Of a stretch of 64,000 nucleotides of DNA, positions 9,339-21,895 are shown piece by piece. Every line of letters begins with the position of its first letter. Positions within the stretch are counted from its first letter, which is position 1. Under the pieces are notes generated by a model, which saw only the letters and a list, made by a program, of their open reading frames with translations, was not told the DNA's origin and searched no databases. The stretch is from Phormidesmis sp. (lineage in GTDB: Bacteria; Cyanobacteriota; Cyanobacteriia; Leptolyngbyales; Leptolyngbyaceae): assembly GCA_965277365.1 (NCBI GenBank), contig CBDICO010000001.1, forward strand, positions 192,786 to 256,785. Direction: 5' to 3'. The translations under genes were made by a program, and so were the position numbers.

Positions 9339-10168
9339 GGTTGTGTCGCAAAAATGGTAGGGTTGGAGGGTTTAATATTCTCTGGCTTCAATCTAAATGA
9401 CATCCCAATCGCTGTTTAAGTGGCGGCATTTCTTGCCAGAGATCATCCTGCTGAATGTGCGGTGGTATCGTCGTTATCCCCTGAGCTACCGGAACCTGGA
9501 AGAAATGATGGCAGAACGAGGAGTGGAGGTGGATCATTCGACGATTAACCGCTAGGTGTTGAAGTTTGCCCCAGAACTCGACCAACGGCTTCGACCCCAT
9601 TTGAGCTTGACCCATGATCCGTGATTCGTGGCGGGTGGATGAGACCGATATCGAGGTCAAAGGGAAGTGGAAATATCTTTATCGAGCGGTGGACTCAAGG
9701 GGCAACCCGCCGGACTTCATGCTGAGTGCAAAGCGAGACGGGAAGGCAGCCGCAAGGTTTTTCCGCAAAGTGCTGAAGGCTCAACACACCCAACCACCCC
9801 GAGTGATTACGGTGGATAAACACGCTGCCTACCCAGTGGCAATGGAACCGTTGAAAGCCGATGAAACGATTGCAGAAGCAACGGAATTACGCCAGATCAA
9901 GTATCTCAACAACATCATTGAGCCGAACCACCGAACCATCAAGCGAATCGTGAAACCGATGATGGGCTTCAAGTCGTTCAACCCGGCAAGAAGGACATTG
10001 AGGGGCATTGAAGCGATGAATATGATTCGCACAGGACAAGTGAATGGAATTGCTCAAGGGGACAGTGTATCTAAAGTGAAATTCATCGAAGAACTCTTCG
10101 GGGTGATTGCTTAAGGAAACGAGATTGAGATAGTTCCTTTATCACTAAAAAGAATTTGCGCCACAACC
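9339..10168 (+). mobile_element. IS6-family element, inactivated copy
   Basis: IRs GGTTGTGTCGCAAAA / TTTGCGCCACAACC; ATG at 9397, in-frame TAG at 9553, frameshift near 9610; WRVDET and VITVDK motifs; no TSD. Confidence 0.92.
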
Positions 10169-10918: not shown

Positions 10919-11421
10919 GGTATTGTCAACTTAACCGGGTCTGTTCAAAATTAAGCCCAATCATTCCTGATTCGTCAGGTGCGCTCAGACTACGCGGCAG
11001 AATTCAGCCCAGCGACTTCTCGCCAATCTTGAACGCGTTGGCTCATCTGTTGGCGATAGCGTTTGGCTGTGAGTTGATGTTGTTTCGGGTGGAAATGGTC
11101 TCGAATTGGTCCAAAGGCTGAAAGAAAGCGTTGGGCTTGTCCTGGCGATTTGAATCGCCGCATTCGGCGCTCTCTCACTCGTGGCGGCTGATGGGAATTC
11201 TCGGCTCGATTGTTCCCGAATCGTCTCATACGTCACCTCGATTCCCCGATACCGCATCATTTTCTCGATGTCCCGGTAGCTCAAGGGGAAGGGGTAATAA
11301 AGCCAAACGCAGTAACTGATGATTTCGCCGGGGAATCGGTGACGAGAGTACATGGGCAAACAGTCGCGAATGGAGTGGAATCAGTACGATTATTCTACTT
11401 TTCGGTTAAGTTGACAATACC
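10919..11421 (-). mobile_element. Internally deleted IS6-family element (same family as 21064-21895)
   Basis: Perfect IRs GGTATTGTCAACTTAAC / GTTAAGTTGACAATACC; transposase jumps from YETIRE to the NNRAENSHQP region; 503 bp vs 832 bp. Confidence 0.92.
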
Positions 11422-13288: not shown

Positions 13289-13361
13289 GGGGAGTTAGCT
13301 CAGTTGGTAGAGCGCTGCGATCGCACCGCAGAGGTCAGGGGTTCGATTCCCCTATTCTCCA
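13289..13361 (+). tRNA. tRNA-Ala(CGC)
   Basis: Acceptor GGGGAGT/ATTCTCC; anticodon stem CTGCG/CGCAG around loop ATCGCAC; T-loop GGTTCGATTCC. Confidence 0.93.
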
Positions 13362-14144: not shown

Positions 14145-14967
14145 GGTTGTGTCACAAAAATGGTAGGGTGGGGAGTCTAAATTTTCTCTGACCTTAACCT
14201 AAATGGCATCCCAATCCCTGTTTAAGTGACGGCATTTCTTGCCCGAAATCATTGTGTTGAATGTGCGATGGTACTGTCGCTACGCTCTGAGCTACCGGGA
14301 TTTAGAGGAGATGATGGCGGAGCGAGGGGTGGAGGTGGATCATTCCACGATTCACCGATGGGTGTTGAGCTACGCGCCAGAACTGGACAAACGAGTTCGA
14401 CCCCACCTGAATCCGACGAACGATTCGTGGCGGGTGGATGAGACGTATATCCAAATCAAAGGAGTGTGGAAATACCTGTACCGAGCGGTGGATTCGCTCG
14501 GCAACACGTTGGACTTCATGCTGAGTGCAAAGCGGGATGGCAAGGCAGCCGCCCGGTTTTTCCGCAAAGTGCTGAAAGCGACTCATACTCAAACTCCACG
14601 GGTAATCACGGTCGATAAGAACGCTGCCTACCCAGTGGCAATTGAAGCGTTGAACGCAGATGAAACGCTGGCAACAGAGACCGAATTACGGCAGAGCAAG
14701 TACCTGAATAACATCATCGAGCAGGATCATCGCAACATCAAGCGATTAACAAAGCCAATGATGGGATTTGGGTCGTTTAACAGTGCAAGACGTACCTTGA
14801 GAGGAATTGAAGCGATGAGTATGATTCGCAAAGGACAAGTAAAGGGAATCAGCCAAGGGGAGAGTGTTTCTCAAGCGAAGTTTATTGAACGAATCTTCGG
14901 AATTAGCGCTTAACGGAATGCGAACGAGATACTTCGTTTGTCACTAAAAAGTATTTGCGACACAACC
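14145..14967 (+). mobile_element. IS6-family element (same family as 9339-10168), premature stop
   Basis: IRs GGTTGTGTCACAAAA / TTTGCGACACAACC; ATG at 14203 with TGA at 14227 (codon 9); DDE motifs intact downstream; no TSD. Confidence 0.93.
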
Positions 14968-15804: not shown

Positions 15805-16020
15805 CTAGGCACCTGGAAGGACGATCGTTCGAGGACGGCTCCTCTGAGGCTTGAAAGCGGGTTGGGTGTCCACGATCTTAGGGCATCGCTCGGTGGTCGG
15901 AGACTGACTTATCGACCGATCTCGCGATTGCAAGACGATTTCCGCTCTCTCTCTTGCAACTGGGTGTAGCGTTGAGGTTCCATACGGCTGAGTTTTGAGA
16001 ATCTGCTTATTGGTGGTCAC
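15805..16020 (-). CDS. Small hypothetical protein overlapping the integrase 3' end
   Basis: 71-aa ORF with a GTG start, co-oriented with the integrase. Confidence 0.35.
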   Translation of the reverse strand: MTTNKQILKTQPYGTSTLHPVARERAEIVLQSRDRSISQSPTTERCPKIVDTQPAFKPQRSRPRTIVLPGA

Positions 16021-17008
16021 CCTCGCTCTCGCCGATCGCCTTCAAATACGCCTCCCCTGCTGCCTGCTTAAACACGCCTTTGGTGTAGCGTTCAAACACC
16101 TGATCGCTCTTAATCCCCATCAACTCCTTGCCAAACAGCGGGTCTACCCCTCGGCGAGTCACCTCCGTCCCAAACGTGTGCCGGAACCGATGCGGATGCA
16201 TATTCTCTACCCCCGAGCTCGCCCCCAGCTTCTTCACCATCTTATGCAGTCCCTTGTAGCCCAACCGTTTTCCCACACTCTTTGGGTCTTGTGCCAAAAA
16301 CATTGGACTTTCTGGCATCGGCTCGAACACCCCACTCTGCTGCCGTCGCCACTCTAGATAGGCTTCCAAATGCGATCGCGCCTCCCGACTCAGCGGCACC
16401 TCACTCACGTTTTGCCCCTTGGATCGATGCACCGTCAAAATCTTGCCATTCCAACTTCCGACATCCAGCGCGGATGCCTCCGATGCCCGTAGCCCATGAC
16501 TGAGTACCGCCACGATCGCCCGATCGCGCACCCGCGTCCGCTCGTCCAACTCCAGCACCGCCCAAATTTCACTCAAGTCTTCCGCCTCAATGTGCGCGGC
16601 TTGCGGTTCCGGTTGCCGCTCCAAGTCGATCGCATCGGTCGGCAAGGGCTGATTCATCGGGTAGCCATTGCTGCGTCTGAGCCAGCTATAGAATGATCGC
16701 AGCGTATTGAGGGCATGATTCACCGAAGTTGGTTTCAATCCCTTCAGCTTCAGATCCCGTCGATATTTGCCGATATGGCTGGGAGTCACATCGAGCCAAG
16801 ACTGACCCGACCAAGCCGCAAAGCGTTGGAGTTGCCCGCGATAGGTGCGCTGCGTATTCTCTGCCTTCCCTGTCTGGCGTAAAAATTCCTCAATCTGCCA
16901 GTGCCTCAGATCGGGGGGTTCTTCCCAGTGGGGTGTTTCCACCTTTCCCCCCTTTATGGAGACAATCACGATCGGCAAAACGGGTTCAGCGGGTGCAGGA
17001 TTCATCAC
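16007..17008 (-). CDS. Tyrosine recombinase (XerC/D-like, with an N-terminal SAM-like domain)
   Basis: RDRAIVAVLSHGLRASE, RSKG, HPHRFRHTF and ERY motifs. Confidence 0.93.
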   Translation of the reverse strand: MMNPAPAEPVLPIVIVSIKGGKVETPHWEEPPDLRHWQIEEFLRQTGKAENTQRTYRGQLQRFAAWSGQSWLDVTPSHIGKYRRDLKLKGLKPTSVNHALNTLRSFYSWLRRSNGYPMNQPLPTDAIDLERQPEPQAAHIEAEDLSEIWAVLELDERTRVRDRAIVAVLSHGLRASEASALDVGSWNGKILTVHRSKGQNVSEVPLSREARSHLEAYLEWRRQQSGVFEPMPESPMFLAQDPKSVGKRLGYKGLHKMVKKLGASSGVENMHPHRFRHTFGTEVTRRGVDPLFGKELMGIKSDQVFERYTKGVFKQAAGEAYLKAIGESEGDHQ

Positions 17009-18250: not shown

Positions 18251-18419
18251 GGGGTGTAATCAGGGTGCGTGAAATTTCGTGCCCTGAGAGCCTGAAACAC
18301 TTAATTCCGCGTATCATGCTTGAAGCATTCTCCTGCAAAGTGATTAATCGTGGAAAGCTCACTCCGTCAAAGGTTCAGCAGTTGGTGGCCCTTTAAAGTA
18401 GTTATCCTGATCACACCCC
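18251..18419. mobile_element. 169-bp MITE-like element with GGGG (Tn3-like) termini
   Basis: GGGGTGTAATCAGG ... CCTGATCACACCCC (13/14 IR); no exact TSD (GATCA/GAATA). Confidence 0.6.
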
Positions 18420-18571
18420 GAATAGGCAACTCGGACATGAAGAAATAATGCGCCAACAGTGTCAGCGGTGCGATGAGATTGAAGCAATTGAGACGGGTGC
18501 AAGGGGAATTAGATGATTGAGGTAGTAGAGATCGGTCTGTTTAGGTTCTCTAATGGGTAAGAACATTACTC

Positions 18572-18600: not shown

Positions 18601-18875
18601 ATTGTCTATTGGGGGTTGAGTTAAACTCAACCACAAGAAGTAATCGAAACCGATTGAACAATGGTGACATAGCCTTGTCCTCTTGAAAGAGTGATGTGAG
18701 TGCTACAACACTTCACGATCAAGGTCACTTTGGTATGAACGAAAAGCATTCAATGAATTTTTCAAGGCTTTGAATCTTTGCCGCAGAAATTCAAATTCAC
18801 GACCGCTAACTTCCCAGCAAAAAAAGCCACAATCGCTCTCGGTTGTGGCTTTTCATCTCCCATATTTTCCAAAAA

Positions 18876-19091
18876 TCACGCCGCTGGCCTTACAAAATTC
18901 ATCCCTCTAAGTGGCTTGCATCCTTCAAAGCTCATCGCGTCCTCCTCGAGAAACCCTGCAATCATCATCTCAATCACCAGTTCAATCGGATACTCAATCT
19001 GGGCAGCGTAGGCGCGAAGTTCTAGCTGGATTTTTTCAGGCAGTGTATTGAGGATGATCTGGGCGGATTCGGGCGAAAGATGCTCTGTCAT
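18876..19091 (-). CDS. Small RHH/CopG-like protein, paralog 2
   Basis: 71 aa; 28/60 ungapped identity to 19088-19300; 4-nt overlap with it. Confidence 0.75.
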   Translation of the reverse strand: MTEHLSPESAQIILNTLPEKIQLELRAYAAQIEYPIELVIEMMIAGFLEEDAMSFEGCKPLRGMNFVRPAA

Positions 19092-19300
19092 GCTTTTCGT
19101 CCCGGTCTACAGTCAGCAAACCCGATCGCGTTAGGGTCAAGGTATCCCGTGATCGCCATTTCCAAGATCGCTTCAACGGGATAATCTATCTCAGCAGCAC
19201 GAGCGATGATCGCTGCTCTGATTCGCTCTGGTAGCTGTTCCAAGATGACTTGCCCTGCTACTGGAGATAGCTGCTCATACTGGTTGGAGGTTGTTTGCAT
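19088..19300 (-). CDS. Small RHH/CopG-like protein, paralog 1
   Basis: LPERIRAAIIARAAEIDYPVEAILEMAITGYL helix-turn-helix pattern; starts 3 nt after the nuclease stop. Confidence 0.75.
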   Translation of the reverse strand: MQTTSNQYEQLSPVAGQVILEQLPERIRAAIIARAAEIDYPVEAILEMAITGYLDPNAIGFADCRPGRKA

Positions 19301-19303
19301 GGC

Positions 19304-19654
19304 TTACTCCATTGGAATTTGAGCGTTATAGGGCGGTTCTGTGGCTCTCAGAATCATCCCCTCTAGCTCTGATAATAACGCTGGGTTTCCCCACCGACCT
19401 AGAACTTGAAAAATAATTCGCACATCAGCAGGGTTATAAAGATCGAGCCACGCCCAAAGAAAGGCTTTATGACCTCCGTTGAAACGGATGGCGAGATTAT
19501 TCGTTTTCCCGATATACAAAACCCCGTAGGAGCGATGACGAACCGCATAGATGCCGGGGCGACTAGGCAGAGCGTCAAACTCACGGGTAATTTCAATTGC
19601 CTCATCAAAGTCTGAGAAAGCAAGGCAGTTCAATATTTCTGTAGCGTTATTCAT
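19304..19654 (-). CDS. GIY-YIG nuclease
   Basis: PGIYAV...LYIGKTNNLAIRF...ELE...PPYN. Confidence 0.88.
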   Translation of the reverse strand: MNNATEILNCLAFSDFDEAIEITREFDALPSRPGIYAVRHRSYGVLYIGKTNNLAIRFNGGHKAFLWAWLDLYNPADVRIIFQVLGRWGNPALLSELEGMILRATEPPYNAQIPME

Positions 19655-19708
19655 CAGGCTTGGTCTTCTTGCTCAATTCGACTTCCTCCCGTCCTACTGC
19701 CTCAGTTA

Positions 19709-19777
19709 GGGGTGTAATCAGGATAACTGCTTTAAAGGGCGATCAACAGCTGAACCTTTGACTGGGTGCGCTTTTCA
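19709..19777. repeat. Second copy of the GGGG-element end, inverted relative to 18351-18419
   Basis: 60/69 identity to the reverse complement of 18351-18419. Confidence 0.8.
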
Positions 19778-19796
19778 GTTGCGAAGAAACCACATT

Positions 19797-20594
19797 TCAG
19801 GCAGGGTATCGGGCAGTGAACACTTGAAGGACTTCCTGAAATGGTATGGGAAGCAAGGCGAGAACTGGGTGCGAAATCGCCTCTGGCACCCCGCCATAAA
19901 AAGCCTGAGCAATGCCTCCAGCGATGCAAGCGATCGTATCACTATCGCCACCCAGGGAGATGGCGTTGCGAATCGCATCCTCAAAATCCGTGGATTCGAG
20001 AAAGGACACGATCGCCTGGGGCACGGAACCCTGACAAGATACATCAAAGCGATAGCTCGGTCGAAGGTCTGCCAGCGTTCGACTGAGGTCATAGCCAAAG
20101 GTGGTTTCTACATAGGCTTTGATTGCTTGTTTGTCGTGCCCGGTTCGAGCTAGAAAGATTGCTGATGCCGTCGCTTGAGCACCTTTGATGCCTTCAAGAT
20201 GGTTGTGCGTCACTGCCGCACTCTGCTTTGCTGCTGTCAGCACCTGCTCTAAATCGTTGAAGGCAAAGCCGATCGGACTGACTCGCATCGCTGAACCATT
20301 TCCCCAACTATTGTAGGCAGGGGCGAGATCAGAGGCTGCCCAGTTTGCAAAACTGCTGCCGTAGCCTGCGGTCGGGTAACGGCGGTAGTAGTCTCTAAAG
20401 GTTCTGGCGTAGTCGTGGTTGCTTGGTAGGTTCCCCCCGGAGTCATGGTTGAGTAGGACATCTGCACAGGCGATCGTCAGAACGGTATCATCCGTGAACC
20501 GAGAGCCAGGACTCAGAAGGGGAAAGTCTTTGGTTTTGAGGTTGTGCCGTTCGTAAATAGAACCCACTACGTCACCGATAACTGCGCCCAGCAT
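19797..20594 (-). CDS. ADP-ribosylglycohydrolase (DraG/ARH family)
   Basis: GDVVGS, FTDDT, SWGNGSAMRVSP and GGDSDT motifs. Confidence 0.93.
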   Translation of the reverse strand: MLGAVIGDVVGSIYERHNLKTKDFPLLSPGSRFTDDTVLTIACADVLLNHDSGGNLPSNHDYARTFRDYYRRYPTAGYGSSFANWAASDLAPAYNSWGNGSAMRVSPIGFAFNDLEQVLTAAKQSAAVTHNHLEGIKGAQATASAIFLARTGHDKQAIKAYVETTFGYDLSRTLADLRPSYRFDVSCQGSVPQAIVSFLESTDFEDAIRNAISLGGDSDTIACIAGGIAQAFYGGVPEAISHPVLALLPIPFQEVLQVFTARYPA

Positions 20595-20636: not shown

Positions 20637-20993
20637 CTAATCTTCCGCTTGTTGAGCGGGGGACGCCTCACCCCATTGCTGCTCGATGCGGGCAATCCCC
20701 TTCTCGATGCGGTTCAAGCGGTGGTCCATCTGGTCTAACCGAGTGGAAAGGGCGGTGACCCGAGTGAGATACGCCACGAGCGCCAAGGAAACCTCCTCGC
20801 CGCCGGATTCCTCCCCTTCGGGTTCACCCAATTCTGAGGAGAGATCTGCAAACAGTTCTGGTTGAACAATCGGCTGAATGTGATCCAGCAAGGCTTGCAG
20901 CACCTCGGCGAGCGTGGCTTCTCCACTCTTTAAGTGCTGTTGCCACTCGTCAAGTTCAAACTCAAAGTCTGGCAAGAAAAAGCGGAACGTCAT
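20637..20993 (-). CDS. Acidic hypothetical protein with a C-terminal coiled coil
   Basis: 118-aa ORF ending 42 nt before the ARH start, same strand. Confidence 0.65.
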   Translation of the reverse strand: MTFRFFLPDFEFELDEWQQHLKSGEATLAEVLQALLDHIQPIVQPELFADLSSELGEPEGEESGGEEVSLALVAYLTRVTALSTRLDQMDHRLNRIEKGIARIEQQWGEASPAQQAED

Positions 20994-21063: not shown

Positions 21064-21895
21064 GGTATTGTCAACTTAACTGGAACGTAGAATAATCGTA
21101 CTGATCCCATTTAGATCGCGACTCCTTGCTCATGTACTCCCGTCACCGCTTTCCTAACGAAATCATTAGCTATTGTGTCTGGCTTTATTACACGTTTCCC
21201 CTGAGCTACCGAGACATCGAGAAAATGATGCGGTATCGGGGGATTGAGGTGACTTACGAAACGATTCGGGAGTGGTGCCAGAAATTCGGGCAGCAGTATG
21301 CCAATCAGCTTCGGCGCAAACGTCCTTACATTACCGATAAATGGCACTTAGATGAAGTGGTCGTGACGATCAAAAAGGTGCAATATTATTTGTGGCGAGC
21401 AGTGGATTCTGAGGGGAACGTGCTGGACGTACTGCTGCAACGGCGGCGAGATACAGAAGCAGCCAAGCGATTCTTCCGCAAACTGTTGAAAAAACAAGGC
21501 TTCGTGCCACGGGTAATCGTCACCGACAAGCTGAAGAGTTACGAAGCGGCGAAGAAACAGGTGATGCCGAACGTAGAGCATCGAGCGCACAAGGGATTGA
21601 ACAATCGAGCGGAGAACTCGCATCAGCCCACACGAGTGCGGGAACGGCGAATGCGACGATTCAAATCCCCGGGGCAAGCGCAACGATTTCTCTCAGCTTT
21701 TGGACCGATTCGAGATCACTTCCACCCGAAACAACATCACCTCACCGCCAAACGCTATCGCGAACAACTGCGCCAACGCTTTCAAGATTGGCGAGAAGTG
21801 GTTTGTCTAAATTCTGCTGCATGAACTGAGTGCCCCTGCCGATTCGGGAATAATTGTGCTGAATTCTGAACAGACCCGGTTAAGTTGACAGTACC
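21064..21895 (+). mobile_element. IS6-family element, apparently intact (transposase 21126-21824)
   Basis: IRs GGTATTGTCAACTTAAC / GTTAAGTTGACAGTACC; WHLDEV, VIVTDKL and NNRAENSHQ motifs; no TSD. Confidence 0.94.

Follow-up and report, generated by a model that had tools for sequence, protein, structure and literature searches.

A compact module of three minus-strand genes, consisting of a small GIY-YIG nuclease and two related partner proteins, was examined in a 64,000-nucleotide stretch of the genome of the cyanobacterium Phormidesmis sp. (assembly GCA_965277365.1, contig CBDICO010000001.1, positions 192,786 to 256,785; hereafter the window, in whose own numbering all positions are given). 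The first gene (19304..19654) encodes a 116-aa putative toxin, which was recognized by its match with PF01541 (GIY-YIG) and by the invariant catalytic residues. The second (19088..19300) encodes partner 1, a 70-aa putative antitoxin or immunity protein with an isoelectric point (pI) of 4.65, which is the orthologue of the single partner present in most cassettes of this kind. The third (18876..19091) encodes partner 2, a second and faster-evolving paralogue of 71 aa (pI of 4.51) with 47% identity to partner 1. The nuclease and partner 1 genes are separated by 3 nt, the ATG of partner 1 is preceded by GGAG 7 nt upstream, and the two partner genes overlap by 4 nt (ATGA), which reproduces the coordinates and the tight coupling reported in an initial annotation of this DNA. 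An upstream leader of approximately 50 nt (19655..19708, minus strand), whose extent was defined by DNA homology to relatives, moves together with the cassette. About 23 nt past the stop codon of partner 2, a hairpin followed by a T-run is present on the minus strand (18817..18853; arms at 18822-18835 and 18840-18853, 93% complementary), which fits an operon terminator, and a simple terminator scan contained no entry for this hairpin. Based on comparative genomics, the locus is probably a toxin-antitoxin-type module that combines a toxin fold new to that class with a new partner family.

The nuclease matched the whole PF01541 profile (positions 2-78 of 78) with 29.7 bits (curated cut-off of 22.6) and an E-value of 7.8e-7. 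The GIY (G34-I35-Y36) and YIG (Y47-I48-G49) motifs as well as R57, E98, and N110 were invariant in an alignment of 29 homologues, and thus the family assignment and the intact active site described in the initial annotation were both borne out. GIY-YIG is the sole domain of the protein, and neither a DNA-binding domain nor a trafficking domain is present. UvrC, Cho, and DEDD-GIY proteins carry GIY-YIG domains with weak similarity to it, far below the NCBIfam cut-offs. Its profile match and its invariant residues mark the 116-aa protein as a minimal GIY-YIG DNase whose catalytic residues are intact. The clade to which it belongs contains at least 759 clusters at 90% identity, and every named member is cyanobacterial. 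Sequence identity reaches 60-65% across cyanobacterial orders, with a mean column identity of 65%.

The occurrence of the two components was investigated in an even sample of 401 cyanobacterial genomes representing 156 genera. The partner could be detected in 63 genomes (approximately 16%) and 32 genera, with up to seven matches per genome and with stop codons in many copies, and the nuclease in 42 genomes. In a species-representative genome collection, 424 partner loci were identified. Within the window's own family, a DNA match was present in 21 of 41 genomes. The nearest alleles (90%) belong to metagenome-assembled genomes (MAGs) of Leptolyngbyales, and genomes of the same genus carry distant alleles only, with DNA identities of 66-72%. 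Such a patchy, multi-copy distribution is consistent with horizontal spread of the cassette.

In every genomic context examined, the nuclease (115-125 aa, or 241 aa at one locus) has one partner gene, encoding 68-75 aa, only a few bases downstream, and the neighbouring genes differ each time. In Synechocystis PCC 7509, the cassette lies within a type I restriction-modification operon; in Leptolyngbyaceae JSC-1, BrnT, Fic, and PIN genes lie in its vicinity; in Ca. Synechococcus calcipolaris, it adjoins HigB and helix-turn-helix (HTH) genes; and in one MAG, it adjoins the genes for FBPase and G6PD. Insertion sequence (IS) elements adjoin the cassette in the nearest relatives of the window, and two near-identical megaplasmid records of Leptolyngbya boryana carry it as well. 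The pair is labelled in RefSeq as "GIY-YIG nuclease family protein" and "hypothetical protein". Among the 64 open reading frames (ORFs) flanking 32 intact cassettes, no Pfam family occurred more than twice, and neither a conserved third gene nor a transposase could be found as a part of the cassette. Most of the immediate neighbours in these 32 loci are ordinary metabolic, transport, and signalling genes. No methyltransferase was present among the top families listed for the flanking ORFs, and none adjoins the module in the window.

Conservation between contexts extends over approximately 50-55 bp upstream of the nuclease start and the genes themselves, with homology ending at the partner stop codon. 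For the copy in the window, DNA homology to relatives in other contexts ends at 19703-19708 on one side and at 18884-18894 on the other. No terminal repeats or target motif could be found at the cassette boundaries. Moreover, nuclease and partner co-diverge, with correlated distance matrices (Mantel r = 0.88, 104 pairs). On this comparative evidence, the cassette is an autonomous unit that occupies many unrelated chromosomal sites. The tight coupling of nuclease and small protein, on which the initial annotation had remarked, is conserved across the cyanobacterial contexts searched. A related observation was made in the clade with 125-aa nucleases (loci L070-L126), in which a conserved block of approximately 55 bp, with a consensus of roughly ATTTGTGGGAACATAATTTCTG-TGCAATCA, precedes the nuclease start across unrelated genera. 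This block is a candidate promoter or operator moving with the cassette; the leader of the window's clade differs from it.

The strongest indication of the relationship between the two components came from their patterns of decay, which were compared in a partner-first set (the best 80 of 424 genomic loci) and a nuclease-first set (the best 80 of 176 metagenomic loci). For 81 intact, non-tandem partners, the upstream nuclease was intact in 47 cases and frameshifted or interrupted by stop codons in 6; in 13 cases only a 3' remnant or some other partial form was left, and in 15 no nuclease was detectable, which means that approximately 40% of intact partners adjoin a broken, truncated, or deleted nuclease. 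By comparison, 72 of the 75 intact nucleases were directly followed by an intact partner, two by a frameshifted partner, and one ran off the contig end, leaving none that was partnerless. This asymmetry, with the other gene intact for 72 of 74 nucleases versus 47 of 79-81 partners, was highly significant in Fisher's exact test (odds ratio of 24.5, p = 3e-9), although the loci are not phylogenetically independent. The near-constant company of an intact partner, together with the persistence of partners after the loss of the nuclease, is the signature expected of a toxin/antitoxin or toxin/immunity pair, and the pairing proposed in the initial annotation thus gained comparative-genomic support. 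The pattern is a classic signature of a dispensable, harmful gene, here presumably the nuclease, accompanied by a protective gene that is kept first and longest.

Orphan partners were further analyzed for selection, expressed as the ratio of nonsynonymous to synonymous substitution rates (dN/dS). Pairwise dN/dS was 0.116 between orphan partners versus 0.103 between paired copies. In addition, the six substitutions that separate two Nostoc orphans with a common nuclease remnant are all synonymous (binomial p = 2e-4). By these measures, orphan partners are still under purifying selection. No alternative toxin gene could be found upstream of the orphan partners, which are either solitary or adjoin a leftover 3' part of the nuclease gene.

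The partner family has no Pfam or NCBIfam model, all of its named members are cyanobacterial, and a few partners carry the Joint Genome Institute (JGI) label "predicted transcriptional regulator". A partner profile searched against 1.8 billion representative proteins retrieved only 259 relatives. Both partners in the window are acidic overall and lack a basic N-terminus. They were described as paralogues in the initial annotation, and BLASTP recovered the same 28 identities over 60 ungapped positions with an E-value of 4e-21, far above chance. Against orthologues in close relatives, dN/dS values were 0.03-0.06 for partner 1 and 0.12-0.31 for partner 2. Judging from these ratios, both ORFs are real genes under purifying selection, with partner 2 evolving several-fold faster than partner 1. 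In the close relatives L047, L049, and L130, protein identity is 58-88% for partner 2 versus 94-97% for partner 1, and synonymous divergence of partner 2 is saturated where that of partner 1 is approximately 0.4-0.5. Such variability points to the second partner undergoing allelic replacement or diversifying turnover.

The partner occurs in three forms, namely a single gene, a tandem gene pair, and a fused double-domain protein. The order of nuclease, partner 1, and partner 2 is common to the closest relatives of the window (L047-L049 and L130/L131). In one further locus (L055), both partners are kept and the nuclease is absent, and degenerate tandem partner copies were observed in several other genomes. 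The fused form is represented by a subfamily of at least 180 clusters, in which a 135-aa protein made of two partner-like repeats lies downstream of a divergent nuclease. Partner 2 shows 44-47% identity to partner 1 versus up to 55% to the single partners of other clades; since it is no nearer to partner 1 than to the partners of other clades, either the duplication is old or another cassette was the source from which the second copy was captured. The coexistence of single, tandem, and fused forms implies that the working unit of the partner may be a dimer, and the two partners in the window probably act as a heterodimer. The duplicated or dimeric partner suggested by the initial annotation therefore received partial support, in the form of recurrent tandem copies and of a whole family of fused double-domain partners.

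Several variant copies were also recorded. A third, degenerate partner copy with two in-frame TGA stops is present elsewhere in the same genome (contig C12, 606651-606872); no nuclease was detectable upstream of it, and it represents an orphan pseudogene of the same family. At two metagenomic loci (L209:1295-1678 and L210:806-1189), a 127-aa ORF (P0376) combines an HNH-like N-terminus (PF01844, E = 4e-5) with a partner-like C-terminus. This single short metagenomic case may hint that the partner domain can also team up with a different nuclease fold; alternatively, the gene call may be chimeric. Moreover, a 219-aa ORF on contig C28 of genome G080 (L045:1531-2196) carries a divergent GIY-YIG domain fused in frame to a partner-like domain and is followed by a frameshifted second partner copy. 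This ORF may be a natural "Rosetta stone" fusion, or the locus may be decaying, and its in-frame arrangement supports a putative physical association between nuclease and partner.

The fold of the partner is a separate question. The initial annotation regarded the small proteins as similar to ribbon-helix-helix (RHH) proteins. No RHH family was retrieved for either partner in Pfam or NCBIfam, nor for any of 28 family members at E <= 1; a profile search of PDB with the partner returned no RHH protein; and a search of the whole genome with RHH_1 found nothing. The weak Pfam matches across the 28 members (FliG_M, MgtE_N, and UBM) are at chance level. AlphaFold2 modelled the partner monomer as three helices without strands (predicted local distance difference test, pLDDT, of 80), with the would-be ribbon strand modelled as a helix at a pLDDT of approximately 90. 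The fused double-domain partner was modelled as two repeats, each of a short helix and two helices and again without a strand (pLDDT of 82, predicted template modelling score, pTM, of 0.76). Confidence drops in the conserved C-terminal tail of the partner (F-x-D-C-x-P). A structured core with a conserved tail of lower confidence is an architecture that, in these models, fits an RHH antitoxin-like protein.

When both AlphaFold2 models were compared with PDB by using Foldseek, no significant match was obtained; the top matches by template modelling score (TM-score) were Arc (TMt 0.50) and single-chain Arc (TMt 0.61), with E-values that are not significant. Likewise, the nearest named neighbours of the single and fused partners in a protein language-model search were TraY, Arc, RHH_1, RHH_3, RHH_5, ParG, and TacA-like proteins, with scores of 0.82-0.88, and scores under 0.9 are to be taken as a lead only. 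The partner sequence also follows a pattern of a short hydrophobic segment, LP, helix, turn, and helix. Thus, the RHH assignment found no sequence model and met an all-helical prediction, while weak leads to Arc and TraY came from the fold and language-model searches, and the odds that the partner fold is RHH-derived are about even.

Taken together, the balance of evidence leans slightly toward the locus being one copy of a cyanobacterial two-gene addiction-type cassette that resembles type II toxin-antitoxin systems and has the toxin gene first. Such a cassette would probably be a new toxin-antitoxin variant. In the proposed mechanism, the GIY-YIG nuclease, when unopposed, would be toxic by nicking or cleaving DNA, and the small acidic partner encoded downstream would neutralize it by direct binding. 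The likeliest contact would be the conserved C-terminal tail of the partner (F-x-D-C-x-P), carried on a dimeric, possibly RHH-like, helical core, and this core might also repress the cassette promoter or the conserved leader. The nuclease would then be freed when the cassette is lost or when some trigger, for instance infection, occurs. A bolder version of this proposal, which we regard as tentative and somewhat short of an even chance, is that the cassette founds a cytoplasmic type II toxin-antitoxin family with a minimal GIY-YIG DNase as toxin and a new cyanobacteria-specific dimeric antitoxin, which would have evolved from a homodimer through a tandem heterodimer to a single-chain pseudo-dimer and whose F-x-D-C-x-P tail would plug the active site. 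Previous reports of the GIY-YIG fold are confined to secreted polymorphic toxins and to restriction, homing, and repair enzymes.

Several observations weigh against a toxin-antitoxin cassette. The nuclease gene is approximately 1.8 times as long as the partner gene, and part of the decay asymmetry therefore reflects mutational target size; this factor cannot account for the roughly 15-fold difference in decay. Two metagenomic loci (L132 and L198) contain an intact nuclease beside a frameshifted partner, and in one genome (G366), an apparently intact nuclease has no partner beside it, with an intact orphan partner at another site of this genome. Conservation of the nuclease is unusually high, and the protein is itself acidic (pI of 5.33), unlike many basic toxins. 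Structure predictions of the complex (nuclease with partner 1, and nuclease with both partners) gave a median of 0.00, which the tool counts as no evidence against an interaction and which offers no support for one; one run at 0.27 placed the partner tail on the active-site face, a result that was not repeated. Finally, the in-frame fusion on contig C28 of G080 is equally expected of a cooperating two-subunit enzyme.

The last point leads to the main rival explanation, in which the small protein is a DNA-binding or activating subunit of a two-subunit endonuclease with a GIY-YIG core, and the cassette is a selfish, homing-like element or an accessory repair nuclease. There are precedents for such an arrangement: the small helical domain of Slx4 activates Slx1, and GIY-YIG homing endonucleases are targeted by a separate DNA-binding domain. 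A nuclease that lacks a DNA-binding domain of its own, its strict co-occurrence with the partner, the single nuclease/partner-like fusion, the weak leads to RHH (DNA-binding) proteins, and the presence of the cassette at many unrelated sites would all agree with this explanation. However, the loss of the nuclease beside approximately 40% of intact partners, at least one pair of which is under purifying selection, is hard to reconcile with a mere targeting subunit. Both partners are acidic overall, and no conserved insertion target or flanking motif was found, as homology stops at the stop codon and approximately 55 bp upstream. A two-subunit endonuclease is accordingly considered unlikely. A non-toxic accessory pair, that is, a small nuclease for DNA repair or processing co-transcribed with a transcription factor that regulates it and without any role in addiction or conflict, appears improbable. 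It would suit the conservation of the nuclease sequence, the regulator label given by JGI to a few partners, and the fact that the best NCBIfam similarities, although far under the cut-offs, are to UvrC/Cho-type GIY-YIG proteins. It is at odds with the patchy presence of the cassette (16% of sampled genomes and half of the genera in the window's own family), the multiple and frequently pseudogenised copies, their placement at unrelated loci, the restriction of same-genus genomes to distant alleles, and a directional decay that is unlike that of a housekeeping operon.

A role that is compatible with a toxin-antitoxin mechanism is anti-phage abortive infection, in which the partner would be inactivated, or the nuclease set free, upon a phage cue, and the nuclease would then cut phage or host DNA. 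Many toxin-antitoxin modules defend against phage, some copies of the cassette lie among restriction-modification and toxin-antitoxin genes (one of them inside a type I restriction-modification operon), and the module in the window is situated in a region rich in mobile elements. Nevertheless, no PADLOC model matched any of the three proteins, and no recurrent defence family could be recognized among the heterogeneous neighbours in the 32 other loci. A search of 50,697 phage records detected no homologue, and IMG/VR yielded just two marginal fragments of 23-25 residues, which gives no sign of an arms race with phages. A defence role, as put forward in the initial annotation, was therefore not established, and it is quite unlikely that abortive infection is the main function.

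Comparison with known systems places the cassette, if it is indeed of the toxin-antitoxin type, between several established groups. It shares with type II modules that have RHH antitoxins (ParDE, CcdAB, TacAT, BrnTA, and HigBA) a pair of small genes that run in the same direction, are translationally coupled, and have a short leader of their own, a patchy multi-copy spread with orphan "antitoxins" and decayed "toxins", and a small acidic partner with a modelled structured core, apparently dimeric, and a conserved, less ordered C-terminal tail. It differs from them in that the putative toxin is a GIY-YIG DNase and the partner matches no antitoxin family model. In a survey published in 2012, the GIY-YIG fold was reported to be apparently absent from classical toxin-antitoxin systems, and GIY-YIG (URI) domains were described among the toxins that polymorphic toxin systems encode next to immunity genes (Zhang et al. 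2012, PMC3482391). The Tox-URI1/Tox-URI2 toxins and their Imm proteins resemble the cassette in having a GIY-YIG/URI nuclease (here a putative toxin), a small gene directly downstream, and common orphan immunity genes. In contrast, Tox-URI toxins are the C-terminal tips of large secreted proteins, such as RHS or filamentous proteins exported by type V and type VI secretion systems (T5SS and T6SS) and other routes (PMC3482391), whereas the cassette nuclease is a stand-alone cytoplasmic protein of 116-125 aa without a trafficking domain. The partner matches no Pfam family, and the Imm families were not compared with it specifically.

The partner also has features in common with TraY and other tandem RHH proteins and with Arc, MetJ, and CopG, including the LP-helix-turn-helix pattern, a dimeric-looking unit, and fused tandem repeats as in TraY; it is unlike them in that it has no RHH profile match, its ribbon strand is modelled as helical, and it is acidic without a basic N-terminus. 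GIY-YIG homing endonucleases (I-TevI and Seg proteins) and restriction enzymes (Eco29kI and Hpy188I) have the same catalytic fold and residues and show a similar selfish or accessory genomic behaviour. The cassette departs from these enzymes in lacking a DNA-binding domain and an intron or intein host; it also shows no association with phages and no adjacent methyltransferase in the flanks checked. A search of PADLOC-DB 2.0 retrieved no family for any of the three proteins at E <= 1, and a known defence system was rejected on this basis. Literature searches, which did not cover all journals, revealed neither a later GIY-YIG toxin-antitoxin pair nor this cyanobacterial family, and the earlier statement that no named system has this layout agrees with both results.

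If the nuclease is toxic and the partner neutralizes it, GIY-YIG DNases would enter the classical toxin repertoire and a new antitoxin domain would be defined. Hundreds of orphan small cyanobacterial ORFs would then be explained as leftover antitoxins, and the forms with one gene, two tandem genes, and one fused gene would offer a natural series for studying the transition from a homodimer to a heterodimer or a single-chain protein. A small nuclease with a matched inhibitor might also serve as a tool for counter-selection or plasmid maintenance in cyanobacteria. Overall, the interest of the finding may be regarded as moderate: strong comparative evidence and a large family stand against a function that is proposed by inference and against the great number of candidate toxin-antitoxin families.

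The module in the window is also enclosed, together with approximately 450 bp of unique sequence, by a 72-nt imperfect inverted repeat, whose left arm (18351..18422) is 86% complementary to the right arm (19706..19777); cassette homology ends at the inner edge of the right arm. Only two copies of this repeat exist in the whole genome, and it was not found in 20 related genomes or in the other cassette-carrying loci that were fetched. By these counts, a multi-copy miniature inverted-repeat transposable element (MITE) and the cassette's own ends were both excluded as explanations. An insertion into a palindromic element, an invertible segment, and a rearrangement scar are possibilities. DNA nearly identical to the region 18700-19900 was detected mostly in glacier metagenomes and in one data set from an isolate or enrichment, and no RNA run was shown to contain this locus.

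With regard to the surroundings, the initial annotation had linked the module to the cargo of CRISPR-associated transposons (CAST). This context was not established, as no CAST gene (for type V-K, tnsB, tnsC, tniQ, and cas12k) was present among the 30 scanned ORFs of at least 100 aa in the window. The setting includes IS6-family transposases (9614-10114, 14239-14913, and 21126-21824), a tyrosine integrase (16007-17008), and a tRNA-Ala(CGC) at 13289-13361, which was confirmed as real. Partial or whole IS6-family (DDE_Tnp_IS240) copies were located at 10919-11421 and 21064-21895, and also at 9339-9922 and 14145-14721. An inverted IS6 pair (84% complementary) encloses the region of approximately 11.4-21.1 kb, including the tRNA-Ala, the tyrosine integrase, the nuclease module, and an ADP-ribosylglycohydrolase gene, and this layout resembles a composite transposon. 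The ADP-ribosylglycohydrolase gene (19797-20594, minus strand; PF03747, E = 1e-40) lies 142 nt upstream of the nuclease and is preceded by an ORF for a 118-aa acidic protein without a family match (20637-20993, minus strand). These two genes may form another conflict-system pair or may simply be cargo. In the nearest relatives of the window (L001-L004), a 78-aa RHH_5-like gene stands beside the cassette in place of the ADP-ribosylglycohydrolase gene.

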